In this document: piece by piece, positions 15,627-63,199 of the stretch
Layout of the letters: the number at the start of each line of letters is the position of its first letter
Position numbering within the stretch: position 1 is the stretch's first letter
Origin: Candidatus Woesearchaeota archaeon
GTDB lineage: Archaea; Nanobdellota; Nanobdellia; Woesearchaeales; SKGA01
Assembly: GCA_050187915.1 (NCBI GenBank)
Contig: JBFXLI010000001.1
Span: 35,920 to 99,919, forward strand
DNA: 64,000 bases
Direction: 5' to 3'
Notes under the pieces: model-generated
Databases searched by the model: none
What the model was told of the DNA's origin: nothing
Seen by the model: only the letters and a program-made list of their open reading frames with translations
Program-made: the position numbers and the translations under genes

Positions 15627-16247
15627 TCATTTCCTCTTAAGTATATCTTCAATAATTGAAGTGAGTTGTTGTGTATTTTCATTTAAATCATCAACAGATC
15701 TCATTTCTATAAATTCAACATTTTTTAGTTTTTTCGGCCTTTTTTCATAAATTATTCTTTTATATGCTTTTCTAAATTCAACTAAATCAGAATAATTTTC
15801 ATCACGTAGAAGATTTTGACGTATTTGTAATCTTTCCATGGCCTCAACAGGATCAATATCAATATAAATTGCAAAATCAGGTACAAAATTAGGTTCCAAT
15901 AAATCAATATACCATTCAGGAAGTATACCTAAATGACTTGCATAAGCAGTTATAATGCTTCTATCAGAAATTACAAAATCATTTTTGAATACATTCGGTG
16001 ATAGATTGGCTCTTGCTGATAAAGCATATAATGTTTCTTGAATCATTCTTGGATTAAATAAGCCTGAAAATATTCCTTTGGAATTTATTTTGTAAACTTT
16101 TTTTATTAGTTGACCAAAAAAATTATTTTTATCACTATAATTATAAATACTTAAATTAATATTTTTTTCTTGAAAAATATTTTTTTGAATGGAAACTTGA
16201 GTACTTTTTCCAGTTCCATCAATACCTTCCAACGCAATATATTTCAT
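15627..16247 (-). CDS. Thymidylate-kinase-family P-loop kinase (Tmk-like).
   Basis: MKYIALEGIDGTGKSTQ (P-loop), DRSIITAYA (the Tmk DRY/F motif region), and a LID-like ERLQIRQNLLRDENY. Start placed at the internal ATG at 16247, which abuts the upstream gene's stop. Confidence 0.65.
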   Translation of the reverse strand: MKYIALEGIDGTGKSTQVSIQKNIFQEKNINLSIYNYSDKNNFFGQLIKKVYKINSKGIFSGLFNPRMIQETLYALSARANLSPNVFKNDFVISDRSIITAYASHLGILPEWYIDLLEPNFVPDFAIYIDIDPVEAMERLQIRQNLLRDENYSDLVEFRKAYKRIIYEKRPKKLKNVEFIEMRSVDDLNENTQQLTSIIEDILKRK

Positions 16248-16248
16248 T

Positions 16249-17349
16249 TTAATCAAAATAATTCTCCAAAACTTCTTTTCTTCTAACATCTACAGTAGTA
16301 CAATGCAAACCTCCACCAAAAAGCTCGCTATGTCTAAGTCTAAAAGGAATTGGTTCAAATCCTGCACGTTTTAATGCATATATAGTTAATTCTGCATTGT
16401 CTCTAATTAAAATTCTTTTTTCATCAAGGGAAATAACATTTACACTCATACCAAAATCAGTTGCCATTTGCAAATGATCTGGAGGATAATTAAATTTTTT
16501 AGATTCATCTAATATAGGTATAATATCCCATTTTTGTAAAGCGGAAGGTAAATTTTGATATAAACCTTCCATAACACTTTCATTAACTAAAAGTTTTCCT
16601 GGTGCTATAGGAATTAAATGACCATCTAAATGACTATCTGAAATTCTTACTATGTGTATATTATATTTATCTCCAAAATGATTTTTTAACCAATATGCTC
16701 CCAATTCTTGATTTTTTGTTGCTGCATTAATAACTAAATCTTTTCCAAATTTCAGGCAATTAGCTGCATCAATTGAAATATCTAAATTAAATTCAATATC
16801 AACCATATCATTTATTGGTTTAAATAAATTATCTTTCCAATAAGATCTGTCTTGTTTATCTATACTTAAAAAAGGTCTTGGAGCTACAGTCCATTTAGCA
16901 CCTTTTCTAAAATAATCCATAAAAATGTCTCTCAATAAATAACCTTCAAAATATCTTTTTGTATTTGTGGGTGGTGTTTCAATTATTTCATCACCATAAC
17001 ACAAAAACATATCTCTTGGAGAATCAGATGCTGTTGTAAAAGAAGAAAAGTAAGGCGTTTTAATTTCGTTTATTTCATCTACTATTGCAGGTCGTCTTAC
17101 AACAATTCCCTCTTTCTCTAGAAGTTCTTGTAAATTATTTAAATCTTCTTGTCTTTCTTCAATATATCTTTTATCAATCATCCAAGGATAATTTCTATCT
17201 TTAAATTTACCATCTCTATTTTCATACATAAATCTAAAAGATTCATCAATTTTCAAATGATTAAAATTAACTGAATTTCCAATAATTATTTCTTGTAATG
17301 GAGCCCATTCAGTATAAACATTAACTGGACACGAATTTTTATTTTTCAT
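16249..17349 (-). CDS. Amidinotransferase (glycine amidinotransferase / inosamine-phosphate amidinotransferase StrB1-like).
   Basis: N-terminal NVYTEWAPLQEIIIG and C-terminal HSELFGGGLHCTTVDVRRK. These match the conserved ends of AGAT/StrB1 enzymes, including the catalytic Cys in GGxHC. Confidence 0.75.
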   Translation of the reverse strand: MKNKNSCPVNVYTEWAPLQEIIIGNSVNFNHLKIDESFRFMYENRDGKFKDRNYPWMIDKRYIEERQEDLNNLQELLEKEGIVVRRPAIVDEINEIKTPYFSSFTTASDSPRDMFLCYGDEIIETPPTNTKRYFEGYLLRDIFMDYFRKGAKWTVAPRPFLSIDKQDRSYWKDNLFKPINDMVDIEFNLDISIDAANCLKFGKDLVINAATKNQELGAYWLKNHFGDKYNIHIVRISDSHLDGHLIPIAPGKLLVNESVMEGLYQNLPSALQKWDIIPILDESKKFNYPPDHLQMATDFGMSVNVISLDEKRILIRDNAELTIYALKRAGFEPIPFRLRHSELFGGGLHCTTVDVRRKEVLENYFD

Positions 17350-26572: not shown

Positions 26573-26742
26573 ATCAATCACATTTTTATTTTTTAGCCAA
26601 AATTCTGTGTAAAATTTTAGCAACCAAGAAATCGCATATAAAGAAAATCCTATACGCGTTAACTCGGATTTATATAATTAAGAAATTTCATTAATTTATA
26701 AAGGTTTGGTTATAATGTTCACTTATAAATTCAAATAAAACG

Positions 26743-26817
26743 GGCAGGGCCTGGGATTTGAACCCAAACTAGAAGATCCACAGTCTTCTGTGCTAACCAG
26801 ATTACACTAACCCCACC
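26743..26817 (-). tRNA. tRNA-His (anticodon GUG), with the G-1 residue genomically encoded and no encoded CCA.
   Basis: The minus strand reads G(-1)-GTGGGGT-TA-GTGT-AATCTGGTTA-GCAC-A-GAAGA-CTGTGGA-TCTTC-TAGTT-TTGGG-TTCAAAT-CCCAG-GCCCTGC-C. The cloverleaf folds: acceptor 7 bp (three G.U pairs), D arm 4 bp, anticodon stem GAAGA/TCTTC with loop CTGTGGA (U33, GTG at 34-36, G37), T arm TTGGG/CCCAG with a TTCAAAT loop, and discriminator C73 pairing G-1. A TATA-like TTTATAT sits ~25 nt upstream. Confidence 0.8.
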
Positions 26818-26857: not shown

Positions 26858-26989
26858 GTTACGAGTGAAATAAGTAACCTAGGAATGTTAATGAGTATGG
26901 TTTTGAAGAACGTAGTTCGAAAAACTTAGGAACGTCAGTGAGTATTGTTACGAGTGAAATAAGTAACCTAGGAATATTAATGAGTAGAG
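26858..26989. repeat. Degenerate tandem/direct repeat (~89-bp period, two 43-bp copies plus a partial internal copy) between the Lrp gene and tRNA-His.
   Basis: GTTACGAGTGAAATAAGTAACCTAGGAAT[G/A]TTAATGAGTA occurs at 26858-26900 and again at 26947-26989. The 46-bp stretch between them holds a third degenerate half-copy (TAGGAACGTCAGTGAGTATTG). Each unit contains a hairpin GTTAC-N11-GTAAC. Confidence 0.5.
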
Positions 26990-27148
26990 TTATGATGAAA
27001 TTAAATTAAAGAAAATAATGGAAATGTATTTTCAAGCTAAAATACGGGTAGTAATTATGTTTTTTCATTATTTATGTTTGTTTGTTAACTTATCTTTCTT
27101 ATTTAAACACAATTGGTTGCTTGAAAATACACCCAAAATTATAACAAA

Positions 27149-27807: not shown

Positions 27808-29397
27808 ATGCATCCAACTGAATTTAAAATTATTCAACTACTTGGAAAAGAAACAAAAGAACTTAATACAACTGAACTTATTTCTGAAATTTTCAAGAAT
27901 GAATTTAAAAAAGTAAATGAAGATTTAAAAAGTTATGAAAAAGTAATAGTACAAGAAGCAAAAAGAACAAAGGCACAAATGCATAGAAAAATTCTATATC
28001 ATTTAAATAAATTAACCAAAGAAAATTATATTTATGTTGTTAGCACTCATGGTAAAGGTGAAAAATTATTTAAAATTAATGAAGAAAAAAGACTTGAAAA
28101 TACTAAAGATGATGAAATAAAAACAATTTTAGATAATTTAAATAAAAATAAAGATACATTTCCTTTAGGATTGGAAGGATACGAAGAAGAAGGAATTATA
28201 AGAATACATGGTGAAACAGATTGGAGTAATAAAATAAATGCTATTTTTTTAAAACCAATTTTAGACATAAATAAATTTATGAATTTATTACATAATATTT
28301 ATTCGTACATAAATGATTGTATAGGAATTTTAAATTTTCAAGAATATATCGAAACTAAAAATGAAGATGAAACAAAAAATTTTTTAAAAAAAATAAATTT
28401 AGACAGTACAGATTATGGTAAAAGAATTTCAATACAAATTAATTTAGAAAGAAAAGTTAATTTTAATAAAATGTTAGAGTTTATTAAATTATTTTCTGAG
28501 TTGAAACCAAAAAATATAGAATGTGTTTTTCAAATAACAAAAGAAAGTCTGAAAGAAAATTTAAAATTATTTAAAGAAATAACTCAAATATTTTGTAAGG
28601 AAAAAATAAGAATAAATATACAAAATTCACATGTACATGAAGCTCCTATTATTGTTGGTTTAACTGGTACGTATAGTTTGTGTAAAAAAGATTGGGATAG
28701 TTATAATAAAATTCAAGATAAAGTTATAGGTGTATGTGTGTCTGATACTGTTATAGGAATGGATGTAGAAAAAATATATAATTTACCAAAGTCTTTTGTA
28801 ACTATGAAAGAAATTTTTTCAAAAATTTCAAAAGCATTACTTTTGGCATCATCTAATCATAGAAAAAAATCAGATAGTTTATTTAAAAAAATAAATGATT
28901 ATAATAAACCTTATGAAAATTATTTTTTCTCAGTATCTTCTAACTACATACGTTTGTGGAATTATGATCCTGATAGAGAAGATTATAATATGTTTGTTTC
29001 AAGTTTACAAGATATAGAACAATATTTAGATGATTTTTCAAAAACAGAAGAAACTATTTTTAAATCATGTGGAATTCCAATAAGATTTAAAATTTCTTTA
29101 TCAAGTGCATTTGGTAAGTTTGGAGAAAAAATGAGTAAAAGAAAGTATGAAAAAATTACTATAAAAAATAAGGAAGATTTAACTTCTGAAAAAACTAAAA
29201 ATTATATAGAAAAAAGAAAACAATTATTTGATTTATTTATGTGTGACAGAATAAGATTTTTTAGAAATGAAGATTATAATACTACTAAGATAACAGATGA
29301 ATTTTTTACAATAATGGATAATTATAGATTACCTTTTTTTTCTTATGATTTTAAACCAAGACAAGGAAATTTAACACTTAATACATTTTTCAAATGA
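27808..29397 (+). CDS. Large hypothetical protein with an N-terminal winged-helix domain (529 aa).
   Basis: N-terminal MHPTEFKIIQLLGKETKELNTTELISEIF... is HTH-like. The remaining ~430 aa have no recognisable motifs. Its stop overlaps the next gene's start (ATGA). Confidence 0.4.
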   Translation: MHPTEFKIIQLLGKETKELNTTELISEIFKNEFKKVNEDLKSYEKVIVQEAKRTKAQMHRKILYHLNKLTKENYIYVVSTHGKGEKLFKINEEKRLENTKDDEIKTILDNLNKNKDTFPLGLEGYEEEGIIRIHGETDWSNKINAIFLKPILDINKFMNLLHNIYSYINDCIGILNFQEYIETKNEDETKNFLKKINLDSTDYGKRISIQINLERKVNFNKMLEFIKLFSELKPKNIECVFQITKESLKENLKLFKEITQIFCKEKIRINIQNSHVHEAPIIVGLTGTYSLCKKDWDSYNKIQDKVIGVCVSDTVIGMDVEKIYNLPKSFVTMKEIFSKISKALLLASSNHRKKSDSLFKKINDYNKPYENYFFSVSSNYIRLWNYDPDREDYNMFVSSLQDIEQYLDDFSKTEETIFKSCGIPIRFKISLSSAFGKFGEKMSKRKYEKITIKNKEDLTSEKTKNYIEKRKQLFDLFMCDRIRFFRNEDYNTTKITDEFFTIMDNYRLPFFSYDFKPRQGNLTLNTFFK

Positions 29398-30059
29398 GGT
29401 ACAATATGGAAATTAAAGATAAAGATGTAATGCAAATGTGGAAAAAAAGCATTAAACATGTTTTGGAAAATGGAAGAGAATATGTTGATAATGATAAAAG
29501 AATTTGTAAGGAAGTTTTTAATTTAATGTTAGTTGTTGAGAATGTTGAAAAAGAAAAAATAGAAATGCCAATGAATTTAATATATGATTTCGAAAAATGG
29601 ATATATCCATCAAAAGAAGAACTTATAAATTTAATTTTTAAAAAATCTCAAGCTCCTGTTTATGAATATACTCATGGAGGAAGAATTTTTAATTTTGGTA
29701 ATGTAAAAAATCAAGTAGATGAATTTATTATTCCTGTTTTGAAAAAAGATAATGATTCAAGAAGAGCTTTAGTTATTATTTATGATCCATTAATAGATTC
29801 AATTTTTGGAAATATAAATACGCCTTCATTAATATCTTTACATTTTAGAATTATTGAAGATAAATTAAATATAACTGGTTTAATTAGAAGTAATGATTTA
29901 TTATTTGGTTTACCTTCTAATTTATTTCAAATTTATTTAATTCAAGAATATGTTGCAAAACAATTCATGTTAAAACTTGGTTCTATGACTATTATAAGTC
30001 ATTCAGCTCACTTTTTTATAGAAAGTGAAAATCCTTTATTAGATAAATTAAAAGAATAA
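29394..30059 (+). CDS. Thymidylate-synthase (ThyA)-fold protein whose catalytic Cys-His dyad is replaced by Ser-Leu.
   Basis: Collinear with ThyA. DSRRALVIIYDP matches DSRRIIVSAWN, and INTPSLISLHFRI sits where ThyA has LAPCHAFFQFYV. ITGLIRSNDLLFGLPSNLFQIYLIQEYVAKQ matches [33 protein letters not shown], and SHSAHFF sits where ThyA has GGDTHLY. R-S-D and the Asn of the PxN motif are kept; the nucleophile Cys is not. Confidence 0.65.
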   Translation: MRYNMEIKDKDVMQMWKKSIKHVLENGREYVDNDKRICKEVFNLMLVVENVEKEKIEMPMNLIYDFEKWIYPSKEELINLIFKKSQAPVYEYTHGGRIFNFGNVKNQVDEFIIPVLKKDNDSRRALVIIYDPLIDSIFGNINTPSLISLHFRIIEDKLNITGLIRSNDLLFGLPSNLFQIYLIQEYVAKQFMLKLGSMTIISHSAHFFIESENPLLDKLKE

Positions 30060-30099: not shown

Positions 30100-33000
30100 A
30101 TGGAATTCAAAACTATCACAGAAAAATGGCAGAAAAAATGGGAAGAAGGAAAAATATTTGAAGTTGAAAAAAACGAAAAACCTAAATTTTATGTTTTAGA
30201 AATGTTTCCTTATCCTTCGGGTTCTGGACTTCATGTTGGTCATGCATTTAATTATACTATTGGAGATGTTATTGCAAGGTTTAAATTAATGAATGGTTTT
30301 AATGTATTGCATCCAATGGGATATGATAGTTTTGGTTTACCAGCTGAAAATGCTGCGATAAAAGAAGGTATGCATCCTGATGAATATACACAAAAGTCTA
30401 TGAAAAATTTTAAAATTCAACAAAAAAGATTGGGATTAACTTATGATTGGAATAGAATGGTCGCAACTAGTACTTCTGAATTCTATAAATGGGATCAATG
30501 GATTTTCATTCAAATGTATAAAAAAGGTTTAGCTTATCGTAAAAAGTCTCCTATTAATTGGTGTCCAAAATGTAATACTGTTTTAGCCAATGAACAAGTT
30601 CATAATGGAAAGTGTTGGCGTCATGAAGATACTTCTGTTGAAATTAAACATTTGACTCAATGGTATTTTAAAACAACTGCTTATGCTGAAGAATTAAATG
30701 ATCAAAGTAAACTTGAAGAATGGCCTGAATTAGTTAAAAAACTACAAAAAAATTGGATTGGTAAAAGTTATGGTACTGAAGTTGTCTTTAGTATTAAAGA
30801 TAAAAATATATCTAATGTAATTATTGTTCATGGTTCAAATTCAACTGAAGAAGGGTCAAAAAAATCTCCTGAAAATGAAAGACATTGGAAACGTTGGTTG
30901 AAAAACGAACTTGAAAAAGAAGGAATTAAAGTTTCAAATGAATTGTATCCTAATGATTGGTATCCTAAATATAATGATTGGAAAGAATTATTTGAAAAAA
31001 ATAATATTGATGAAAATAGCATATTAATAGGACATTCTGCAGGTGGAGCATTTTTAGTTAGATGGTTAGATGAAACTGGAAGAAAAATAAAAAAATTAAT
31101 ACTAGTATCACCAGGAAAAGCAGGAAAACAAAGTAGAAATTTTTTGGATGATCTTTATGGAAATGTAACAATTAAAAATATTGGTAAAAATGTTAAGAGT
31201 GAAATTGTTATTTATACTTCAAACAATGATATTGAAAAACACATTATTGGAGCTAAAGAATATTCTGAAGAATTACCTGCTAAAGTAATAACTCTTGAAA
31301 ACAAGGGACATTTCACAGAAAAAGAAATGGGTACAAAAGAATTTCCTGAATTATTAAATGAAGTTCTATATGAAGATTGGAAAGTTTTCACAACTCGTCC
31401 AGATACTTTAATGGGAGTTACATTTTTAGTAATCTCAGCTCAACACACAAGACTAATGGAATTAGTTACAAAAGATCAAAAGAAAAAAGTTGAAGATTTT
31501 GTGAAAAAATTAACTTCTGTATCTGAAGAAGAAATTGACCAATTAGAGAAAGAAGGAGTATTTACTGGCAGTTATGCAACCCATCCAATTACAAATGAAA
31601 AAATTCCAGTTTATGCTGGTAATTTCGTTCTAGCTGATTATGGTTGTGGTATGGTTATGGCTGTTCCTACTCATGATCAAAGAGATTTTGAATTTGCAAA
31701 AAAATATAATATTCCTATGAAGCAAGTTATTGCGCCATATTTTATAACTGACAAAGGTCCTGATGCTTTTCAGGTAGGAAAACCAGTTGTGAAAAGACAT
31801 TCAATTCATGTTATAATAAAACATTGGAGTGAAGATAAATACTTATGTCTTGATTGGACTAAATTTGGTTGGCATACTTTAGTTGTAGGAGGAATAAATG
31901 AAGGAGAATCTCCTGAAGAAGCTACAGTTAGAGAAATTGAAGAAGAAACAGGTTATCAAGACATTAAATCAATTAAAAATTTAAACTTAGATATAATTGG
32001 TGAATTTTACGCTTCTCATAAAAATGAAAATCGTTCCGCACATTTTGTTTCTATGTTTGTGGAACTGGGTTCTGATAAACAAGTTGAAACTAAACCAGAA
32101 CATAATAAACATCATAAAATGGTTTGGTTAGATAAAAAGGATGTAATGAATTTTTTAAACATTCCAACTTATAATAAAAATTGGGAAACTTATTTGAATG
32201 AAGAATGTGCATACACTGATGCTGGAAGATTAATTAATTCTGGTAATTTTAATGATTTACCTAACGATAAAGCTAAAGAAGAAATCACAAAAGAACTTAC
32301 AAAATTAAATAAAGGGAATAAAACTGTAAATTTTAAATTAAGAGATTGGTTAATTTCCAGACAACGATATTGGGGAACACCTATTCCAATAATTTATTGT
32401 GAAAATTGTGGTGAAGTTCTTGATGAAAATATTCCTGTTACTTTACCTATGGATGTTAAATTTGGTGAAGGTAATCCTTTAACAACTTCAGAAAGTTTTG
32501 TTAATTGCAAATGTCCTAAGTGTGGAAATGATGCAAAACGTGAAACAGATACTATGGATACTTTTGTTAATTCGTCTTGGTATAATTTAAGATATGCTGA
32601 TGCAAAAAATAATAAAGAAATTTTCAACAAAGAAAAAGTAAATTATTGGAATCCAATTGATTTATACATTGGCGGAAAAGAACACGCTTGTATGCATTTA
32701 ATATATATTAGATTCTATACTAAATTTTTACGAGATTTGGGATTATTAAATTTTGATGAGCCTGCAATTAAAATGTTTAACCAAGGTATGATTCAAGGTG
32801 CTGATGGAAATAAAATGTCTAAATCTAAAGGTAATACTGTTGATGTTACTGAAATTATTGATAAATATGGTGCTGATGCATTAAGAATGTATTTAGTTTC
32901 TGTTGCTGGACCTGAATCTGATTTTAACTGGAATGATAGAGGTTTAGAATCTATTGCAAAATTTTTGAATAAAGTAGAAGATTATTTTGAAAATGTTAGA

Positions 33001-33702
33001 ATAAATTCTTCAACACAAAAAACAAATAATAAAGTTCATTCAACATTGAAAGAAGTTACAATTTTAATTGAAAAGATGAGATTTAATTTAGCAATAATTA
33101 AAATAAGAGAATTATTTGATTATTTATCTAATGAAGAAAGTAAAGAAAATTTAGAAATATTTGTAAAAATGTTAAGTCCTTTTTGTCCTCATTTAGCAGA
33201 AGAATTATCGGAAAAAATTGGTAATAAAGAATTTGTTTCAATTTCAAATTGGCCTAAATTTGATGAAAGTAAAATAAATTCTGAATTTGATTTTGAAGAT
33301 AAATTTATTTTAGAAGTTAAAGAAGATATTTCAAATGTTCAAAAATTACTTAAAATAGAAAAAATAAATTCTTTGAAATTAATAGTTGCAAATAAATGGA
33401 AATATGATTTATATTTAAAATTAAAATCAATATTAAATGAAATTTCAAATCCAAATGAAATTATTCCTAAAATTATGAATTCAGAATTAAAACAATATGG
33501 ACAAGAAATTATGAAAATAGTTCCTAAAATTGTAAAAACAAAAGTAGTTCCTGATTTTGTTTCTCAAGAGAAAGAAGAAGAAATTCTTAAAAATTTAGTT
33601 AAGGAATTTGATTTTAAAGTTGAAGTTAGTTTAGCTGAAGACTCACAAGAAGCAAAAGCAAAGAATGCAATGCCCGGTAAACCAAGCATAATTGTAAATT
33701 AA
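30100..33702 (+). CDS. leuS: Leucyl-tRNA synthetase, bacterial type, 1200 aa, carrying two inserted domains (alpha/beta serine hydrolase and NUDIX).
   Basis: PYPSGSGLHVGHAFNYTIGD (HIGH), TTRPDTLMGVTF (CP1 start), VPTHDQRDFEFAKKY, RDWLISRQRYWGTPIP, and KMSKSKGN (KMSKS). Insertion 1 is at ~30817-31367 (GHSAGG, YdeN-like). Insertion 2 is at ~31735-32215 (Nudix box GGINEGESPEEATVREIEEETGY). Confidence 0.9.
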   Translation: MEFKTITEKWQKKWEEGKIFEVEKNEKPKFYVLEMFPYPSGSGLHVGHAFNYTIGDVIARFKLMNGFNVLHPMGYDSFGLPAENAAIKEGMHPDEYTQKSMKNFKIQQKRLGLTYDWNRMVATSTSEFYKWDQWIFIQMYKKGLAYRKKSPINWCPKCNTVLANEQVHNGKCWRHEDTSVEIKHLTQWYFKTTAYAEELNDQSKLEEWPELVKKLQKNWIGKSYGTEVVFSIKDKNISNVIIVHGSNSTEEGSKKSPENERHWKRWLKNELEKEGIKVSNELYPNDWYPKYNDWKELFEKNNIDENSILIGHSAGGAFLVRWLDETGRKIKKLILVSPGKAGKQSRNFLDDLYGNVTIKNIGKNVKSEIVIYTSNNDIEKHIIGAKEYSEELPAKVITLENKGHFTEKEMGTKEFPELLNEVLYEDWKVFTTRPDTLMGVTFLVISAQHTRLMELVTKDQKKKVEDFVKKLTSVSEEEIDQLEKEGVFTGSYATHPITNEKIPVYAGNFVLADYGCGMVMAVPTHDQRDFEFAKKYNIPMKQVIAPYFITDKGPDAFQVGKPVVKRHSIHVIIKHWSEDKYLCLDWTKFGWHTLVVGGINEGESPEEATVREIEEETGYQDIKSIKNLNLDIIGEFYASHKNENRSAHFVSMFVELGSDKQVETKPEHNKHHKMVWLDKKDVMNFLNIPTYNKNWETYLNEECAYTDAGRLINSGNFNDLPNDKAKEEITKELTKLNKGNKTVNFKLRDWLISRQRYWGTPIPIIYCENCGEVLDENIPVTLPMDVKFGEGNPLTTSESFVNCKCPKCGNDAKRETDTMDTFVNSSWYNLRYADAKNNKEIFNKEKVNYWNPIDLYIGGKEHACMHLIYIRFYTKFLRDLGLLNFDEPAIKMFNQGMIQGADGNKMSKSKGNTVDVTEIIDKYGADALRMYLVSVAGPESDFNWNDRGLESIAKFLNKVEDYFENVRINSSTQKTNNKVHSTLKEVTILIEKMRFNLAIIKIRELFDYLSNEESKENLEIFVKMLSPFCPHLAEELSEKIGNKEFVSISNWPKFDESKINSEFDFEDKFILEVKEDISNVQKLLKIEKINSLKLIVANKWKYDLYLKLKSILNEISNPNEIIPKIMNSELKQYGQEIMKIVPKIVKTKVVPDFVSQEKEEEILKNLVKEFDFKVEVSLAEDSQEAKAKNAMPGKPSIIVN

Positions 33703-47189: not shown

Positions 47190-48056
47190 TTATTTCTTTA
47201 ATTTATCTATTATTTTTAATGAATTAATATTTAATTTAGAAAATGCAAACCACTTTTTTCCTAAATCTTTAAGTGACGCCCCTATGTGATAAACTTCATT
47301 GTCAATTATTAAAAATCTGTCGTGGGAATCTTTGAATTCATTTATTTGAATATTGTTATATTGTTGATTATATTTTTCTAAATCTAATTTTAATTGTTTT
47401 GTTATTTCTTTTGTATAAATTGTTGTTTTTAATTTTGTTTTTGAAAAAAGGGTAAGAATTGATTCATCAATGTAATTATCAATTAAAATCATTTCTTTTT
47501 TTGCAGATTTAATTAACTTATTTATGAAAAAATATGCTTCAAAAATTTGTCCGTTAAAAAATATTCCTTTTTCGGGTTTAATATCTTTTTCTTGAATTAA
47601 ATTAAATACTTGTTCGAATTTTTCATCAGTTTTTATTTGATATTCTATTTGTTTTGTTTCTAGATTTGATAATTTTGAAAGAAAGTCTGCATTTGATTGT
47701 AAAAATTTTCTCATTTGAACAAAGGCACGCATAATTTGAATATTTATTTTTATAGCAATTTCACTTCTTAAAACACTTGAAAGCATTGCAACTCCTTGTT
47801 CTGTGAAAACAAAGGGAAGATATCCTCCAAACTCTTGTTTAGAAGGGGTCGCAAATTGCGACCCCATAAGTTCTACTTCGTTTTTATTTAATTCAAACAT
47901 AAAATCTTCAGGAAATCTTTCTATATTTCTTTTAACTTGTTCTTTTAGCCTTTTGGTAGAGATATTGTATAATTTCGCTAAATCTTTGTCAAGCATTACT
48001 TGTTTTCCTCTTAAATTGTAAATTTTATTTTTTATAGTTAATTCGATTTCATTCAT
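47190..48056 (-). CDS. ORF6N-domain protein (KilA-N/antirepressor-like DNA-binding N-terminus).
   Basis: YNLRGKQVMLDKDLAKLYNISTKRLKEQVKRNIERFPEDFMF matches the ORF6N signature. The C-terminal ~150 aa are typical of ORF6N-associated C-domains. Confidence 0.55.
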   Translation of the reverse strand: MNEIELTIKNKIYNLRGKQVMLDKDLAKLYNISTKRLKEQVKRNIERFPEDFMFELNKNEVELMGSQFATPSKQEFGGYLPFVFTEQGVAMLSSVLRSEIAIKINIQIMRAFVQMRKFLQSNADFLSKLSNLETKQIEYQIKTDEKFEQVFNLIQEKDIKPEKGIFFNGQIFEAYFFINKLIKSAKKEMILIDNYIDESILTLFSKTKLKTTIYTKEITKQLKLDLEKYNQQYNNIQINEFKDSHDRFLIIDNEVYHIGASLKDLGKKWFAFSKLNINSLKIIDKLKK

Positions 48057-51887: not shown

Positions 51888-52014
51888 AATAATTTCTTTT
51901 AATACATATTTATATATATTTCTATTTTGTAACTACTATTGAGTTTATAAATGATGTAAAGAAGTTATAACTTATTTGTGAATAAAACAAGAATTTAACA
52001 AAATTTTTGTAAAT

Positions 52015-52257
52015 TTAACTTTTACAACAAATAGCCAATTCATTATCTAATAATTCTTCACAACCCATATGATCAAAAAAAATACTATTATTAAAATTAA
52101 GACAATCTTCTTTAGAATTCATACACACACCACCAATTTCATTACAATTTAAAGATTCTTCATGAATATATTTTTTAGGAATGGATGTAAAAATTAAAAA
52201 AAGAGTAATTATTATAATAATAGAAACAATTAAAATTATTTTTGTTATTTTTTTCAT
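52015..52257 (-). CDS. Small secreted/membrane-anchored cysteine-rich protein.
   Basis: N-terminal hydrophobic anchor (MKKITKIILIVSIIIIITLFLIF), then 8 Cys in ~55 aa (CNEIGGVCMNSKEDC...GCEEL...ICCKS). Start placed at ATG 52257; the track uses TTG at 52275. Confidence 0.4.
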   Translation of the reverse strand: MKKITKIILIVSIIIIITLFLIFTSIPKKYIHEESLNCNEIGGVCMNSKEDCLNFNNSIFFDHMGCEELLDNELAICCKS

Positions 52258-52266
52258 TTTTTTCAC

Positions 52267-52320
52267 CTTTTCCAATCAAGCAAAAATCTTGCTCCTTCTT
52301 TTATTTCTTTTTCAAGATAT
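52267..52320. repeat. Left copy of a perfect 54-bp direct repeat.
   Basis: CTTTTCCAATCAAGCAAAAATCTTGCTCCTTCTTTTATTTCTTTTTCAAGATAT is identical at 52267-52320 and 53650-53703. Confidence 0.75.
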
Positions 52321-53612
52321 TAATTTAAAAGTTTGTTGTATTTTTCTAAGATAGACAATCTATACGCTTCTAATTCAGGAAAATGCTTAGGAGTTATCAT
52401 ATAGGATATATGAGAAGAACTTTCTGAATCTTCACCATTAATACTTTTAGAATTTTTTTTATAAACAGTTACAATTATATCTCCTTGCAAAGATATCGTT
52501 ATCATAATATCTCCAAATTCCCTATTTGTTTCTCTAAAAGAATAATTTTCAATCTCAAGTCTATCTGAAATAATTTTAATGAAAATAGGACCTGTAACTC
52601 CTATGGCACCACATAAACTTACAGGCAAAACTTTATTATTTTTAGCTGTTTCCTTTATTTTTTTAATTAATTCTCTTTGTTGTTCTTTCGAATTTAATTT
52701 AGTATAATTAGAATCATTTTCTAAAATTTCTCTAGCAATTTTTTCGAATTTGGGATATTCAGAAATTTCAAAATGTTCGCTTGAAAATGAATTTTTTAAT
52801 CTTGTTAAAACTTCTTTTTTCATTATTTCAAAAGGCTCTTTGACTAAATCTAAATAATCTTGTGAGTCTAATAATTTTGATTCAGACAACAAATTATAAA
52901 TTTTAGATAAATTTTCGAAAGTTTCACCAGAATAGGTATATTTATTTCTCTCAATATATAATAAAGGACTATCTTCATATTTTACCACATTATACTCTAA
53001 ATCACAATTTTTAACATAATCGAGTAATTCTGTTTTAAGTTTAACTTGAAAAGATGAATCTGTTTGTACTTTAGATATTGTATCTTTTATTATTTCTCCT
53101 AATAAAATGGCAGGTATTAATATAATTATAAATGCTTTTGATAAAGAAAAATTTAAAGATTTATGCTCTAAATTTATATTTTTAAATGAGTATTTTTGAG
53201 ATTTTATTATCTCTTGAAGATTTTTCTCAAAATTAGTTTTTTCCAAATTTTTTAAAATGCCATCTTGAATTTCAAAAGCATCTGAATTTTTGATAACATC
53301 CTTTAATTTTTTAGTAAATGAAAATAAATTAATAAGTTGAGTTTTGATTTTATCAAGATTTTTATAATTATCGATAATTAATTTATCACTAATAATTTCG
53401 TTAATTTTATTTTCTTTACTTAAAATTCTATCAAGTACATCATTTAACTTTCTAAAATCATCTTTAGATAAATTATTTTTTTTATTTTCAATTTCGAGAA
53501 TAACATCAATTATTTTATTTTGTAAATTTAAAAATAAATTACCTAATCTAATATCGAACTTTAATGAATTTATTTTATCTCTTGATTTATTATTAAATAG
53601 GAATTTAAACAT
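52320..53612 (-). CDS. Hypothetical protein (430 aa, one TM helix) lying between the 54-bp direct repeats.
   Basis: Intact ORF with an N-terminal coiled-coil-like region and a central TM helix (KAFIIILIPAILLGEII). No recognisable family. Confidence 0.4.
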   Translation of the reverse strand: MFKFLFNNKSRDKINSLKFDIRLGNLFLNLQNKIIDVILEIENKKNNLSKDDFRKLNDVLDRILSKENKINEIISDKLIIDNYKNLDKIKTQLINLFSFTKKLKDVIKNSDAFEIQDGILKNLEKTNFEKNLQEIIKSQKYSFKNINLEHKSLNFSLSKAFIIILIPAILLGEIIKDTISKVQTDSSFQVKLKTELLDYVKNCDLEYNVVKYEDSPLLYIERNKYTYSGETFENLSKIYNLLSESKLLDSQDYLDLVKEPFEIMKKEVLTRLKNSFSSEHFEISEYPKFEKIAREILENDSNYTKLNSKEQQRELIKKIKETAKNNKVLPVSLCGAIGVTGPIFIKIISDRLEIENYSFRETNREFGDIMITISLQGDIIVTVYKKNSKSINGEDSESSSHISYMITPKHFPELEAYRLSILEKYNKLLN

Positions 53613-53645
53613 AATACTAAGAAATATATAGTTATATATATAAAT

Positions 53646-54851
53646 TTATCTTTTCCAATCAAGCAAAAATCTTGCTCCTTCTTTTATTTCTTTTTCAAGA
53701 TATTTTTGTTGAATATTAGAAGAAAATTCTTTTTTTTCAGTACCAGAAAAATATTCTTTTAAAAAGTCTTCCGCAAATTCAGAATAATTTCCTTTTTTAA
53801 TTGCTTTTCTTAAATCTTCAACTAATTTATTCATAAAATAAAGATTGTGTATTGTGGCTAATTTAAATGCTGTTAATTCATGATTTTTAAATAAATGATG
53901 TACATACGCCCGAGAATAATTTTTACAAACTTCGCATTTGCATTTTTCATCGATTGGATTTTCATCTTCTTTATATTTTTTCTTTAAAATATCTATTCTT
54001 CCTTTTTTTGTTATTAATGAACCGTGTCTAGCATTTGACGTTGGATATATTGAATCAAAACAATCAACTCCTAGTCCTACTGCCCAAACTATGTCTGGAG
54101 GAGAACCAAGTCCCATAAGATATTTTATTTTGTGTTCATCAAAACATTTTACTGCTTCTTTAATTGTGTCAAATAATTCTGCTCTTTTTTCTCCAACAAC
54201 TAAACCCCCAAGAGCATACCCATCAAATTCCATTCTGTTTATTTTTGTTGTTGAGAATCTTCTGTATTCTGCTTTAGTTCCACCTTGAGAAATTCCAAAA
54301 AGAAGTTGATTACTTCCATATTCTTTTTTTAGTTTGCTGTGTTCTGTAAGACAGCGTTTCGCCCAAAGATGTGTTCTTTTTATTGCGTCAACATAATCTT
54401 TTCCATTTAAGCCGTAATGAGCTACATCATCAAATGTCATTGCCACATCTGAATTTAATTTAAATTGATTTTGTATTGCTAATTCTGGTGTGTAAAAACT
54501 TTTCTTTCCTGTTTTGTCTTTAAATAAAACTCCTTCATCTGATTTTTTTAAAAGAAAGTCTTTACTTAATACTTGAAATCCGCCTGAGTCTGTGAAAATT
54601 GTTTTTTTGAAATTCATAAATTTGTGAATTCCTCCTAATTTTTCTACTACATCAATTCCAGGATACAATGATAAAATGAAAGAATTTGAAATTATACTTT
54701 GAAAGTTTAAATCTGTTATTTCTTTTGAATCCAAGGATTTAACTGTTCCTCTTGAAGCTACAGGCATGAAGAAAGGAGTTTCTACTTTACCGTGTTCTGT
54801 TTCAAGAATACCGACTCGTGCTGTACCATCTTTATGAGTTATTTCAAACAT
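53646..54851 (-). CDS. tgt: tRNA-guanine transglycosylase (Tgt; short QTRT-like form without a PUA domain).
   Basis: FTDSGGFQV (catalytic Asp region), LGSPPDIVWAVGLGVDCFDS, and the Zn site CKCEVCKNYSRAYVHHL. 401 aa. Confidence 0.8.
   Translation of the reverse strand: MFEITHKDGTARVGILETEHGKVETPFFMPVASRGTVKSLDSKEITDLNFQSIISNSFILSLYPGIDVVEKLGGIHKFMNFKKTIFTDSGGFQVLSKDFLLKKSDEGVLFKDKTGKKSFYTPELAIQNQFKLNSDVAMTFDDVAHYGLNGKDYVDAIKRTHLWAKRCLTEHSKLKKEYGSNQLLFGISQGGTKAEYRRFSTTKINRMEFDGYALGGLVVGEKRAELFDTIKEAVKCFDEHKIKYLMGLGSPPDIVWAVGLGVDCFDSIYPTSNARHGSLITKKGRIDILKKKYKEDENPIDEKCKCEVCKNYSRAYVHHLFKNHELTAFKLATIHNLYFMNKLVEDLRKAIKKGNYSEFAEDFLKEYFSGTEKKEFSSNIQQKYLEKEIKEGARFLLDWKR
53650..53703. repeat. Right copy of the 54-bp direct repeat. 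This copy encodes the C-terminus of Tgt.
   Basis: Identical to 52267-52320. On the minus strand it encodes ...KEGARFLLDWKR* of the Tgt protein. Confidence 0.75.
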
Positions 54852-54889
54852 ATAAAAAAGAATATAAGATTAAAATAAAAAGGTAACTA

Positions 54890-60741: not shown

Positions 60742-62148
60742 TTATTTAATAGAATAAATGAAAACTTGTTGATTACAATCATCTTTGAATGTTTTTTCTA
60801 AGTAAATTGCATCATAATCATCCAATATTTTTTGATTTATCTCTAAACCACCATTTTGTACATAAATAAATGAAGATGTATTATATTTTTCAATAAACAT
60901 TGTTAAATTATCGTTCCAAAAACTGAATACTTTATGATTACCATAATACCCATACCATGGCCAAGAATTAGAAACAATTGTTTTGTCTTCAGGAATATTT
61001 TTCATGGCATAATCTATTGAATTATAAAATGCCCCATCTTTTTCACAATTTATTTGTTCGTTCATACTATAAATTTTATCGTTTGCAATTAAAAGTGAAT
61101 TAAATATAATTAAAGTCACTAAAATAATTTTTATAAATTTGAAATTTATTTTTGAAAACAAATATTTTAATCCAATTACTAGCGCTAAAAATAAAAATGG
61201 AGATATCATTAAAACATATCTTGTTAGTTTCAATCTTATGTAAAATAAATGGAAACATAGTGTTAAAACTATTAAAATTAATAAGAAATAATCTTTAAAT
61301 TCTTTCTTTTGATTTTTATCTAAAAAATAAAGTAAATAAAACAAAATTAATAACAATGACAATCCTAATTCTAAATAAATATCTTTTAGAAATAAAAGTG
61401 GAGATTGCCATGTGGTATATTCAGCAATTACTGAACTTTGAGTCATTAAATCCCATAAAGGATTTTTATATTTTAGATAATTATATAACATCCAAGGAGT
61501 TAAAATCAATAAATTACCTAATGCATAAAAAATCATACTTTTAAAATAAAATAAATTTTTATTTTTCAAGAATTGCTTTATTAACATGATTCCTAAATAT
61601 GAAATTATTATAAATGAAAACAATACAGCTGAAAATCTCATTAAAAAAGATAAAGATGTAAAAATTCCTGATAAAAATAGTTGATATTCTTTTCTTTCTT
61701 TCAAGAATTTTAAAAAGAACAATATTGCTAATAACATAAAACAAAGGGAAGGAATATCTGTGTATACTCTATAACTCCAAAATAACAATGTTGATGAAAA
61801 TGCAAATAAGAATGTGGATAAAAAAACATATATGTCTTCTTTGAAGAATTGTTTTGAAATTAAATAAAATACATAAATAGTTAATAATGAAAATAATATC
61901 ATTAAAATTTGAGCTGATATGATTGATTCTCCAAATAATAACCAAATAAATGCAATAAAATATTCTAACAATGGAAATCTAAAATCTTCAGTAAAATTAG
62001 ATGTTGTTATATGACTTCTTGCGTTTCCTAAATAAACAGGTTCATCCCATAAAAGTAGACTTCCTGAAAAAATAAATTGTAAATAAAATGTTGTGATTAA
62101 AAATAATAAAATAAAAATCCAATATTTCTTTAAAAAATTATTTTTCAT
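60742..62148 (-). CDS. GT-C fold polytopic membrane glycosyltransferase (ArnT/PMT, GT39/GT83-like), putative.
   Basis: 468 aa with 11 or more TM helices. The first loop contains LWDEPVY, which is DE-like. Sits adjacent to the Dpm1-like GT2. Confidence 0.5.
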   Translation of the reverse strand: MKNNFLKKYWIFILLFLITTFYLQFIFSGSLLLWDEPVYLGNARSHITTSNFTEDFRFPLLEYFIAFIWLLFGESIISAQILMILFSLLTIYVFYLISKQFFKEDIYVFLSTFLFAFSSTLLFWSYRVYTDIPSLCFMLLAILFFLKFLKERKEYQLFLSGIFTSLSFLMRFSAVLFSFIIISYLGIMLIKQFLKNKNLFYFKSMIFYALGNLLILTPWMLYNYLKYKNPLWDLMTQSSVIAEYTTWQSPLLFLKDIYLELGLSLLLILFYLLYFLDKNQKKEFKDYFLLILIVLTLCFHLFYIRLKLTRYVLMISPFLFLALVIGLKYLFSKINFKFIKIILVTLIIFNSLLIANDKIYSMNEQINCEKDGAFYNSIDYAMKNIPEDKTIVSNSWPWYGYYGNHKVFSFWNDNLTMFIEKYNTSSFIYVQNGGLEINQKILDDYDAIYLEKTFKDDCNQQVFIYSIK

Positions 62149-63199
62149 TAAATGTCCACCTATCGTTAATGAAGTAATTTATTGGAAAAGATAAAGCTAT
62201 ACCTATTACTTGAGATATTAATGGGTTTATCATAAATAATCTAGTCAATAAAGAAAATACACTAACTGTAATAATTAAAGCCACTATTGAAGTTATATTA
62301 AATTTAAATAATCTTGAAATAAAAGAATATTTTTTCTTTACATGACTCCAAGTCCAAATGTTATTTAATAAAAAATTTGTTTGAATTGAGACTGCAACAC
62401 CTAAGAAAGATGCTAACTCAGGAAATAAATTAGCTAAAGTTCCTAAATATAATATAAATAAATTAACAAATATTCCAGAAACACCTACGATTGCAAATGG
62501 AATAAAGTGTAAATTTGTTTTTATAGCGTGTTTAAACAACATTAAAAGATAATCTATAATTACTTTAGTACTTAATTTACTTTCACCTGCTTGTCTTGTT
62601 TTGAAATGATAAGCTACTTCTGCTGTTTTAAAATTTTTATTTTGGAATAAAATATCTAATAATATTTTATAACCTCTTCCATCTAATTTAGACTTATATT
62701 TCATAAAAACAGATTTTTTTATTCCAAAAAAACCAGACATGGGATCAGTTATTTGTTTAGATAAAAATGGCCTTGCTAGCATTGCTGCAAATCTACTTAC
62801 AAAAATTCTATATTTTGACCAACCTGCAACAGAACCCCCTTTTCTAAATCTTGTTCCTATTACTAAATCATTAGTTTTTATTTTTTCAAACATTAAATCA
62901 AACTTTGTTTCATCATGTTGTCCATCTGCATCTGTAACAAACACATATTCTCCTTTAGCCTTAATGAAACCATCTATTATTGCTGAAGATAAACCTTTTT
63001 TATTTTTTCTTCTTATACAATAAATTAAATCATTATTTTTAAATGTTTTATCCACTAATTCCCATGTTTTATCTGGAGAATCATCATCAACTACAATTAT
63101 TTCATACTTTTCTTTTGATTTTATTGCTTTTTTAATATTTTTAATAGTAGTTAAAATGGATTCTCTTTCATTATATGTTGGTAATATTATTGAAAACAT
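62138..63199 (-). CDS. Polyprenol-phosphate glycosyltransferase (Dpm1/GtrB-like GT2) fused to a C-terminal GtrA-like TM domain.
   Basis: FSIILPTYNERESI, IIVVDDDSPDKT, and VTDADGQHD. The C-terminal four TM helices are typical of GtrA. Confidence 0.75.
   Translation of the reverse strand: MFSIILPTYNERESILTTIKNIKKAIKSKEKYEIIVVDDDSPDKTWELVDKTFKNNDLIYCIRRKNKKGLSSAIIDGFIKAKGEYVFVTDADGQHDETKFDLMFEKIKTNDLVIGTRFRKGGSVAGWSKYRIFVSRFAAMLARPFLSKQITDPMSGFFGIKKSVFMKYKSKLDGRGYKILLDILFQNKNFKTAEVAYHFKTRQAGESKLSTKVIIDYLLMLFKHAIKTNLHFIPFAIVGVSGIFVNLFILYLGTLANLFPELASFLGVAVSIQTNFLLNNIWTWSHVKKKYSFISRLFKFNITSIVALIITVSVFSLLTRLFMINPLISQVIGIALSFPINYFINDRWTFNEK

Follow-up and report, generated by a model that had tools for sequence, protein, structure and literature searches.

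On the minus strand of the window (the whole 64-kb stretch of AT-rich woesearchaeotal DNA that was analysed), the tRNA-guanine transglycosylase gene tgt is followed by a 430-aa gene (ORF430), an orphaned copy of the tgt 3' end (T2), a short Cys-rich gene and a conserved intergenic motif in front of a PhoH-like gene (Table 1). The Pfam TGT domain reaches to about aa 368, and the duplicated part of tgt falls in a conserved C-terminal extension, the tail of which (...KYLEKEIKEGARFLLDWKR) is conserved among relatives.

Table 1. Features of the tgt locus, with positions in the window.
Feature	Position	Strand	Remarks
Conserved intergenic motif, ~100 nt	51900..52006	-	12-bp palindrome AAGTTATAACTT; ends in TATA box of PhoH-like gene
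T3, degenerate third tgt terminus	52010..52031	-	TTGTTGTAAAAGTTAA+ATTTA vs TTGATTGGAAAAGATAA+ATTTA, 18/22 identical, stop aligned to stop
Cys-rich ORFan, 80 aa	52015..52257	-	N-terminal hydrophobic anchor or signal, 6 Cys
T2, orphaned tail copy	52263..52321	-	52267-52321 (55 nt) identical to T1, then G TGA
ORF430, 430-aa ORFan	52320..53612	-	Self-match only in sequence searches
Spacer, tgt stop to ORF430 ATG, 33 nt	53613..53645	-	TATA-like TTTATATATA box ~23-32 nt upstream of ATG
T1, functional tgt 3' end	53650..53704	-	55 nt, then A TAA (53646-53649); exact match to 52267-52321
tgt, bacterial-type tRNA-guanine(34) transglycosylase, 401 aa	53646..54851	-	Pfam TGT 2e-126; NCBIfam TIGR00430 2e-118, above cut-off

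The duplicated tgt tail and the two genes behind it

An exact direct repeat of 55 bp (52267-52321 = 53650-53704), with a start-to-start spacing of 1383, is the sole long exact repeat within the 64-kb window. At the window base composition an exact direct repeat of at least 55 nt is expected by chance about 3e-19 times, in keeping with an earlier note on this DNA, which had held that such a repeat does not arise by chance. The same note gave the repeat as 54 bp of perfect match made of the tgt end plus its stop context, in a genome of about 27% GC. The exact match is real, with a length of 55 bp; it spans the last 18 codons of tgt minus the last base of the Arg codon and leaves the stop codon outside, and the window GC measures 25.3%. 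Within the 5 nt past the repeat two positions differ, AGA TAA in T1 versus AGG TGA in T2. Both mismatches are synonymous (p roughly 0.05), each copy reading Arg and stop, which suggests that each tail has served as a working tgt end. T2 stands in frame behind the ORF430 stop codon and still encodes ...DWKR-stop. T1 differs from the tgt tail of the relatives by 2 substitutions in 55 nt, and the AGA TAA ending is common to both. The order in the contig is tgt body, 55 nt, ATAAATTT, and then ORF430, 55 nt, GGTGA and the Cys-rich gene. A hairpin in the repeat had been suggested as a recombination or terminator site; its 5-6 bp stem is no better folded than shuffled sequence (z -0.4 to -1.2), and the same folding comparison gave no attC-like fold in the repeat core. 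No credible Rfam match was found across the locus, and the core pattern is absent from the viral contigs searched. The single metagenome match to the core (L015) proved to be an ordinary tgt end of the L002 lineage.

ORF430 matches no family in Pfam, NCBIfam, PHROGs, PADLOC or PDB sequences, as the earlier note had it. A word-indexed search of 5.8e9 clusters and a full HMMER search over 1.84e9 representatives both returned the protein itself only, and viral and metagenome contigs (2.9 million viral contigs among them) contain no homologue; the proposed search of viral collections for this protein yielded no link to a mobile element. One low-complexity match (E 3e-4) was disregarded. As far as sequence comparison reaches, ORF430 is a true ORFan. 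It had been described as having one TM helix and a coiled-coil N-terminus: one hydrophobic segment (~aa 157-175) is indeed present, and the structure model draws the N-terminal half as long helices, though with low confidence. Its predicted make-up is a helical Lys/Asn/Leu/Ile-rich N-terminal half with a mixed alpha/beta C-terminal part, and the AF2 pLDDT of 41 (full length) or 42 (C-terminal 254 aa) is too poor for a fold search. The GC content of 21.2% and GC3 of 11.8% are within the host range (z = -1.1; GC3 equals the window mean). The spacer with its TATA-like box would be the architecture expected of a leaderless archaeal promoter; several other window genes likewise carry a TATA-like box ~25-32 nt before the ATG and no Shine-Dalgarno (SD) sequence. 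At the opposite end, the ORF430 stop codon consists of a T and an AA that lies inside the repeat, giving a 2-nt overlap with T2.

The Cys-rich protein found only itself in the protein collection and has no family match. Neither ORFan matches any family, toxin and immunity families included, and the structure models were unusable for this comparison; the two are most likely strain-specific membrane or secreted proteins. The T2 variant AGGTGA yields a GGTGA SD 5 nt before the Cys-rich ATG, and SD-like GGTG/GAGG motifs occur upstream of 24/61 genes versus a 7% background. The earlier statement that the left repeat copy supplies the upstream region of this gene is thus borne out, the two mismatches being what creates the SD. 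At its other end, the last 5-6 codons and the stop codon of the Cys-rich gene are a remnant of a third tail, T3, which was the top scorer when 176 other ORF tails were aligned at their stops (18; runner-up 15). When up to 2 mismatches are allowed, chance alone should give 0.24 matches per window to the tail 18-mer. One more such match, the fourth, at 62182-62199 (+), is antisense of a conserved GT2-GtrA C-terminal coding region and was rejected, as it fits this chance rate. Downstream of T3 follows ATTTAC..., homologous to the sequence past the tgt stop in relatives (AGTTTAC / TTTTTAC), and T3 is read here as the ancestral tgt end. A tail at the end of the Cys-rich gene, followed by the post-tgt sequence of the relatives, points to two successive (nested or serial) insertions rather than the single-gene insertion proposed before.

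The organism has been seen in one sequencing run, SRR27751817, for which our literature search found no paper. In the independent Logan assembly of this run (k=31), a 1388-bp contig corresponds to window positions 52292-53679, i.e., the insert with exactly 30 nt of repeat at each end, and another contig begins 30 nt into the left copy and continues into the Cys-rich gene. Both junction types are present as k-mers, so ORF430 is truly bounded by tgt-tail sequence on both sides; the order across the full 55 nt is as given by one assembly.

The tgt-asnS interval in related genomes

The closest relatives (tgt 87-89% identical) lack both ORF430 and the Cys-rich gene, and neither inserted gene is carried by about 10 related lineages. 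Among these lineages we found no tail duplication and no integrase adjacent to tgt; a shared arrangement with diverged repeats, which the earlier note had weighed against an insertion, is not what the relatives show. The arrangement that the note had hoped to see in them, tgt followed directly by the Cys-rich gene, is absent as well: an empty site of the form tgt-AGGTGA-Cys-rich was seen nowhere, the nearest relatives being no closer than the tgt identity given above. Genomes with tgt-ORF430 but no T2, or with tgt-Cys-rich but no ORF430, as a donor or an intermediate would have, were not found, and the species is known from the single run.

The interval between tgt and asnS is hypervariable across the ~10 related lineages. 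Depending on the lineage it holds a 298-nt gap without a gene, a 96-aa reverse ORFan, an M20 peptidase plus three small ORFs, an MscS-like gene, or a 122aa-PhoH-MscL set with more genes, whereas the flanks are conserved (PfkB-DeoC-tgt on one side, asnS-Metallophos-KaiC-propeller on the other). A variable slot between conserved flanks is the pattern of a recombination hotspot, and the region right after tgt looks like a gene-turnover slot that has received insertions repeatedly. Its downstream edge is the conserved motif, 85-87% identical to L002, L015, L017, L018, L019 and L021 (alignment score 104 vs 21.7 +/- 3.6 for shuffles). This motif starts 2 nt past the tgt stop in relatives and, in L017, after the 96-aa reverse ORFan. 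The T1 flank (AGATAA ATTTA) is of the ancestral type kept at T3 and in the relatives. A BLAST extension had also aligned the sequence after T1 with the post-tgt region of the relatives; beyond the first 5-6 nt this homology was rejected (19 vs 19.8 +/- 3.5 for shuffles).

Origin of the duplicated tails

With a probability of about 0.4, the duplicated tails were left behind when DNA was inserted twice in succession through general recombination with the conserved tgt gene as anchor, old tails being displaced and no element-borne integrase taking part. Which event came first, where the DNA came from and how its far ends were joined illegitimately are inferences. The starting state would be that of the relatives: tgt ending in ...AAAAGA TAA, then ATTTAC... 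and the conserved motif before the PhoH-like gene. In the older event, DNA carrying a tgt 3' end and the Cys-rich gene would have recombined homologously within tgt and been joined illegitimately, at its far end, inside the last ~20 nt of the resident tgt. The Cys-rich ORF would thereby have run into the old terminus (T3) and used its stop codon; the new tgt end may have evolved or arrived as AGG TGA, doubling as the Cys-rich SD. In the recent event, DNA of a very close relative with tgt, TAA, ATTTA, a TATA box of its own and ORF430 would have recombined likewise, its far end being attached 55 nt short of where the resident Arg codon ends. The resident tail (T2) would then be orphaned between ORF430 and the Cys-rich gene, with tgt left intact (T1), and the ORF430 unit, flanked by 55-nt repeats, could loop out and re-enter by ordinary homologous recombination. 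The observed order is intact tgt, then T2 with the Cys-rich gene, then T3 with the ancestral flank, and the slot content varies between related genomes around a conserved anchor gene, as expected of such 3' displacement. The duplicated lengths differ (55-60 nt vs ~20 nt), which is easier to reconcile with illegitimate joins at arbitrary points than with a single fixed att core. The host-like GC and GC3 of ORF430 and its host-style TATA box fit a closely related donor, and a T1 flank resembling that of T3 and of the relatives is what incoming chromosomal DNA of a relative would bring. A donor strain in which tgt is directly followed by ORF430 was not found, ORF430 being present in this genome only.

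Several observations count against serial recombination. Site-specific integration is classically recognised by an intact gene end restored together with a perfect direct repeat, as is seen here. Both inserted ORFs adjoin their tails without spare bases, as a minimal att-bearing cassette would, and the synonymous mismatches past the repeat are equally explained by an element that integrates and excises. To our knowledge, homology-facilitated illegitimate recombination is rare and has been demonstrated in bacteria only, DNA uptake and recombination of DPANN archaea are uncharacterised, and our comparison turned up no donor or intermediate genome.

It is possible, if somewhat doubtful, that the 1383-bp unit of ORF430 and one tail is instead a miniature att-flanked integrative element, similar to a bacterial cis-mobilizable element (CIME), or the remnant of a larger element with its integrase deleted. 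In this reading attP would carry the tgt 3' end, a recombinase from elsewhere in the genome or from a helper would integrate and excise the unit at the tail, and the Cys-rich unit would be an older accretion. The perfect 55-nt repeat does include and regenerate the target gene end, synonymous differences keeping Arg and stop in both copies, and the insert is missing from relatives. Two units stand in tandem at one site, as in accretion at att sites; the likeness of all three tails centres on the ...AAAAG/stop boundary, which is compatible with one crossover point, and a circular form would agree with the loop that the assembly graph makes at the repeat. Yet none of the 61 larger ORFs of the window matches an integrase, recombinase or transposase family, the insert itself holds, as the earlier note had observed, one ORF without a family match and no integrase, and no cognate integrase-bearing element using the tgt tail turned up in the window, in the ~10 related loci or in viral contigs. 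The related tgt lineages lack the tail duplication, the cargo has no homologue anywhere searched, the composition is host-like, and the core shows neither significant structure nor inverted repeats. A deletion remnant should leave some non-coding debris, of which the unit has none, and the older, Cys-rich unit would measure only 248 nt; we know of no integrative element so small. With no homologue of either inserted gene in viral, metagenome and protein collections a family of circulating elements is not in evidence, and nothing shows that the insert is a self-contained mobile element. Of the integrative-element-style insertion at the tgt 3' end that was first proposed, the insertion with a regenerated gene end is supported, as is the lack of ORF430 in the closest relatives. 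Nothing marks the unit as a mobile element: homologues and terminal inverted repeats are missing, composition and expression signals are host-like, and the tails of the ~10 lineages are unduplicated. Recombination without an integrase, with conserved tgt as the anchor and a hypervariable slot behind it, accounts for the data at least as well as an integrative element does.

Two further readings concern the contig and the type of insertion. A contig that misrepresents the molecule, so that a free 1383-bp circle, a tandem array (ORF430 plus one tail) or a strain mixture was written as one integrated copy, is distinctly unlikely. The largest default k of metaSPAdes is 55, and a 55-mer common to two sequences is a single vertex of the graph; the repeat is exactly 55 long, the k=31 contigs all break exactly 30 nt into it with no available assembly joining both flanks across the whole repeat, and the organism is known from one run. 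But metaSPAdes as the source of the contig is an assumption, and both junctions (tail-ORF430 upstream, and ORF430 end-tail) are present as k-mers in the independent assembly of the run. A 55-nt identity between the ORF430-bearing molecule and tgt would still have to be biological, and the decayed third tail shows that insertions which duplicate the tail have truly taken place at this locus, whatever the assembly. Insertion by a transposase, a casposase or an integron-type system, the repeat being a target-site duplication or an attC-like site, is largely refuted and retains almost no probability. It would account for direct repeats bounding a compact single-gene unit, but the target-site duplications known to us are of 2-15 nt, far exceeded by 55 nt, and the insert has no terminal inverted repeats (score 14 vs 16.2 +/- 3.2 for shuffles). 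The window has no match to transposase, Cas1 or IntI families, an IntI integrase with attI beside the insert being equally unsupported by any tyrosine recombinase family match in the window, and the core lacks an attC-like fold. Moreover, the homology of the copies runs past the perfect repeat to the stop, which a staggered cut would give only by a coincidence of ~4% (codon-frequency estimate).

Comparison with known systems and significance

[quoted passage not shown] The tgt locus resembles the 3' displacement arrays of Rhs, CDI and T6SS systems: a conserved upstream gene serves as the homologous anchor, incoming DNA brings a new 3' end and downstream gene(s), and the former 3' end is displaced along with the gene behind it and orphaned, leaving serial tails with the newest nearest the intact gene (PMC5361080). 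It differs from them in its anchor, a housekeeping gene for tRNA modification with a tail that is no variable toxin domain; in its tails, identical or nearly so instead of polymorphic; in matching no toxin or immunity family; and in its host, a DPANN archaeon, a group for which the process is not known.

Elements that integrate into a gene 3' end and bring a replacement end include phage 21 and e14 in E. coli icd, and ICESt1 and ICESt3 in Streptococcus thermophilus fda. They share with the tgt locus repeats made of the 3' end of the target gene, an intact gene and synonymous differences just past the core; unlike these elements of 10-60 kb with their own integrase beside att, the present unit is 1.38 kb long and consists of one ORFan without a recombinase. 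Integron cassettes, with archaeal integrons reported in 2022, are a further parallel: small units of one gene each are piled up at a single site, the most recent closest to where insertion takes place. In contrast to those, there is no IntI here, the repeated sequence is the coding end of a gene and shows no attC-like structure, and ORF430 has a promoter-like box of its own. 'Flexible genomic islands' are integrase-free hotspots of gene flux between conserved core genes, and the tgt-asnS content likewise differs in almost every lineage between syntenic flanks; the double-crossover replacement of such islands leaves no duplicated gene ends, whereas the one-sided joins proposed here left scars. 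CIMEs, catalogued in ICEberg 2.0 (PMC6323972), are att-flanked elements without an integrase that are mobilised by a related ICE. The ORF430 unit is likewise flanked by attL/attR-like repeats and has no recombination module of its own, but CIMEs share att sites with a known cognate ICE, and here neither a helper nor any other att use of the tgt tail was seen in the window or the ~10 loci.

A more far-reaching idea, which we regard as a long shot, is that the tgt tail is a reusable capture site for tiny self-expressed cassettes, each a gene with its own TATA box or SD plus one tail, the newest next to tgt, that loop out and re-enter via host recombination or an unrecognised recombinase. If so, the locus would be an integron-like shuffling platform without an integron integrase, with the coding end of a housekeeping gene as the recombination site, and the Cys-rich peptide and ORF430 would be exchangeable surface or host-interaction cargo.

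At present this is an observation in a single genome with two ORFan genes, and its value is mainly mechanistic. DPANN archaea have tiny genomes and few described mobile elements, and how they gain strain-specific surface or secreted genes is poorly understood. Beside a conserved gene, the locus keeps scars of gene gain that are unusually easy to read: two orphaned tails, of which one is perfect and the other decayed. It could become a model case of how an archaeal symbiont acquires genes without an integrase; should a recombinase prove to act on the tail, the locus would instead offer the first hint of a minimal cassette system.

Tail copies of tgt and the genes between them

The exact direct repeat described in the earlier note at the 3' end of tgt is real, although its length is 55 nt and not 54. 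The two copies, T1 at the working end of the gene and T2 orphaned downstream of it, lie 1383 nt apart (start to start) and form the sole long exact repeat within the 64-kb window; the chance expectation of such a pair is ~3e-19 at the window composition (25.3% GC). All genes of the locus are on the minus strand (see table). The repeat sits in the C-terminal extension of tgt past the Pfam domain. This extension is conserved in relatives, with 2 of the 55 positions in their tails differing from the window tail. That T1 and T2 match perfectly therefore suggests that the event was recent, that the donor was very close, or that the copies were homogenised. A hairpin inside the repeat had been proposed as a recombination or terminator site, but its stem is 5-6 bp and its folding does not surpass that of shuffles (z -0.4 to -1.2).

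Features of the tgt locus, related contigs and the rest of the window
Feature	Position	Strand	Description
tgt	53646-54851	-	Bacterial-type tRNA-guanine(34) transglycosylase; Pfam TGT 2e-126; TIGR00430 above cut-off
T1	53650-53704	-	Last 18 codons of tgt minus last base of final Arg codon
T2	52267-52321	-	55 nt; first AA is part of ORF430 stop codon
ORF430	52320-53612	-	430 aa; ORFan
~100-nt motif	~51900-52006	-	Far edge of slot
~100-nt motif, L002	6310-6386
~100-nt motif, L017	6524-6622
96-aa ORFan, L017	6207-6497		Reversed, between tgt stop and motif
ORF6N gene	47190-48056	-	288-aa ORF6N/KilA-N-type (phage-associated) protein; ORF6N 7e-34
DeoC-tgt gap	54852-54889		38 nt
ThyA-like ORF	29394-30059
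Thymidylate kinase	15627-16289
tgt-terminus-like stretch	62178-62210	+	33 nt, 82% identical to tgt terminus plus flank
GT2-GtrA gene	62138-63199
Leucyl-tRNA synthetase ORF	30100-33702	+	1200 aa; Ser_hydrolase aa 259-418 (6e-13), NUDIX aa 590-684 (9e-11)
53-nt direct repeats	26858-26999	+	Two copies, 91% identical, 89 nt apart
tRNA-His	26742-26816

Read in the tgt sense, T1 is followed by A TAA, 33 nt containing TTTATATATA, ORF430 from its ATG to AAT T, T2, G TGA AAAAA, and the ATG of the Cys-rich gene. Past the core common to both copies, the flank is ATAAATTT on the ORF430 side (T1) and GGTGAAAAAATG on the Cys-rich side (T2). Two of the next five nt differ (AGA TAA versus AGG TGA), and both versions still read Arg plus stop, for which we estimate a chance of ~0.05; this suggests that each copy is a present or past working tgt end. 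The T2 variant also creates AGGTGA 5 nt upstream of the Cys-rich ATG. Since motifs of the GGTG/GAGG type precede 24 of the 61 window genes against a 7% background, AGGTGA is a credible Shine-Dalgarno sequence for the Cys-rich gene. A TATA-like box lies ~23-32 nt before the ORF430 ATG and merges with the T1 flank; as several other window genes without a Shine-Dalgarno sequence share this architecture, we infer a putative leaderless promoter for ORF430.

With 430 codons at 21% GC, ORF430 cannot be a chance ORF. It has no recognisable family, as previously thought: no match was found in Pfam, NCBIfam, PHROGs, PADLOC or PDB, and among 5.8 billion protein clusters and 1.84 billion representatives (full HMMER) it matched only itself. 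The viral-database search proposed earlier for this protein was run, and neither the viral nor the metagenome contigs searched yielded a relative. AlphaFold2 without an alignment gave a pLDDT of 41-42, too low for any fold inference. The N-terminal half is helical and rich in Lys, Asn, Leu and Ile, with one hydrophobic segment in the protein at ~aa 157-175. The composition of ORF430 is host-like (GC 21.2%, z -1.1; GC3 11.8% versus a window mean of 11.7%). For the Cys-rich protein (80 aa, 6 Cys, N-terminal hydrophobic anchor), the protein collection search found no homologue beyond this genome.

A third tail and the tgt-asnS interval

The Cys-rich gene itself ends in a tgt-like sequence, T3. 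Its last 5-6 codons, stop and next 5 nt read TTGTTGTAAAAGTTAA-ATTTA, while the tgt terminus reads TTGATTGGAAAAGATAA-ATTTA, with 18 of 22 positions identical and the frame shared. When ORF tails were aligned at their stop codons, T3 scored highest (18); among the 176 other ORFs the runner-up reached 15 and the bulk 7-11. The chance expectation for the tail 18-mer, at up to 2 mismatches, is 0.24 occurrences per window. One further such match, at 62182, lies antisense to a GtrA gene; the stretch containing it falls in the C-terminal GtrA domain of the coding region and was judged to be chance. Downstream of T3 come ATTTAC... and then a ~100-nt motif, which in the closest relatives starts 2 nt past the tgt stop (TAA-AGTTTAC... 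or TAA-TTTTTAC...; alignment score 104 versus 21.7 +/- 3.6 for shuffles). Given the top tail score, the low chance expectation and the relatives' post-tgt sequence that follows, the best reading of T3 is that tgt originally terminated here and that the Cys-rich ORF has since taken over this sequence as its own end. What had been taken for insertion of a single gene would then be a series of two: T1, ORF430 unit (1383 nt), T2, Cys-rich unit (248 nt), T3, ancestral flank.

The species is known from one sequencing run, SRR27751817, and identity to the nearest tgt proteins reaches just 87-89%. Five related contigs (L002, L015, L018, L019, L021) carry tgt, then the motif directly, a 122-aa ORF, a PhoH-like gene and MscL. 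On L017 (JGI Ga0645780_00016) a 96-aa ORFan abuts the tgt stop without spacer and without tail duplication, filling the slot that holds ORF430 and the Cys-rich gene in the window. In more distant lineages tgt is followed by an MscS-like gene (L003), by an M20 peptidase and three small ORFs, or by only a 298-nt gap before asnS. With such varied content between recurring flanks (PfkB-DeoC-tgt; asnS...Metallophos...KaiC-like...beta-propeller), the tgt-asnS interval is a hypervariable slot. The arrangement anticipated for relatives, tgt directly followed by the Cys-rich gene, was not among these, and none of the ~10 related lineages duplicates its own tgt tail.

The upstream side of tgt is also rearranged: where all relatives with 87-89% identical tgt (L002, L017, L018, L021) have thyX and a thymidylate kinase gene separating tgt from the DeoC aldolase, the window has a 38-nt gap, and its own ThyA-like ORF and thymidylate kinase sit elsewhere. 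The ~100-nt motif, also present on L018, L019 and L021, is conserved at 85-87%, a level that the tgt genes of the same genomes do not exceed. Within it lies the perfect palindrome AAGTTATAACTT (12 bp), and its end is formed by the TATA box of the PhoH-like gene (or of the 122-aa ORF). It has no Rfam match and may be an operator, regulatory region or small RNA. No window gene other than the ORF6N gene has a mobile-element flavour. It adjoins an unannotated 128-aa ORF between asnS and the Metallophos gene and shares the variable neighbourhood of the tgt locus, at a distance of 4 kb.

Origin of the tail series

The reading we favour, at a probability of about 0.4, is that general recombination, with the conserved tgt as its anchor, made the insertions one after another; the far end of the incoming DNA would join illegitimately inside the resident tgt tail. 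It is favoured because the duplication lengths are unequal (55-60 nt versus ~20 nt), the slot is hypervariable, signals and composition are host-like, the flank after T1 is of ancestral type, and neither a recombinase family match nor an element family was found. The closest described process is that at T6SS effector-immunity and Rhs loci, where homology-facilitated illegitimate recombination was proposed for orphaned 3' ends (PMC5361080).

The main rival, somewhat unlikely in our judgment, invokes an element: either a miniature one, att-flanked and moved in trans, or what is left of a larger one. Regeneration of a gene end is textbook behaviour for such elements and tandem accretion would fit as well, but an att-like structure is absent, the older unit measures only 248 nt, no relatives were found, and neither the window nor the ~10 related tgt loci gave an integrase family match or a helper. 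The lack of an integrase in the insert pointed out earlier was borne out by a Pfam scan of all 61 window ORFs of at least 110 aa and the small ones at the locus, which gave no match to an integrase, recombinase, transposase or Cas1 family in the 64 kb. Terminal inverted repeats are missing from the insert, as is the core pattern from the viral contigs. Insertion of the transposon or integron type is all but excluded. An assembly loop, which is compatible with the element model and not exclusive of it, is improbable. The repeat length, exactly 55 nt, coincides with the largest default k of metaSPAdes, not necessarily the MAG's assembler. Independent Logan k=31 contigs of the run end precisely 30 nt inside the repeat (L001 is identical to window 52292-53679; L016 starts at 52296), and these 30 nt show that tail sequence really does border ORF430 at either end. 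The same contigs fit a single integrated copy, an added circle or tandem array, or presence in part of the population, and do not show which. T3, as read here, is independent of the assembly issue and shows that the locus really underwent a tail-duplicating insertion. Another improbable reading, more novel than the others, takes the tgt tail for the reusable recombination site of a cassette-capture platform.

Other window features and significance

Elsewhere in the window, the leucyl-tRNA synthetase ORF has Ser_hydrolase and NUDIX domains embedded among its synthetase and editing-domain segments, unusual insertions for an aminoacyl-tRNA synthetase. A GTTAC...GTAAC stem occurs in the 53-nt repeats beside tRNA-His, as do three TAGGAAyGTyArTGAGTA-like units; this non-coding stretch is apparently richer in G+C than its surroundings, has no Rfam family, and possibly represents small RNA genes. 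The organism is archaeal: the window also contains an archaeal SRP RNA, and NCBI assigns the ORF430 protein to a Candidatus Woesearchaeota MAG (locus tags AB7V77_).

Insertion sites with duplicated gene ends are familiar, and with a single genome and two ORFans without assigned function the finding is a modest one. New here are the setting, a housekeeping tRNA-modification gene of a DPANN archaeon, and the combination of no recombinase family match, ORFan cargo and tails in series.
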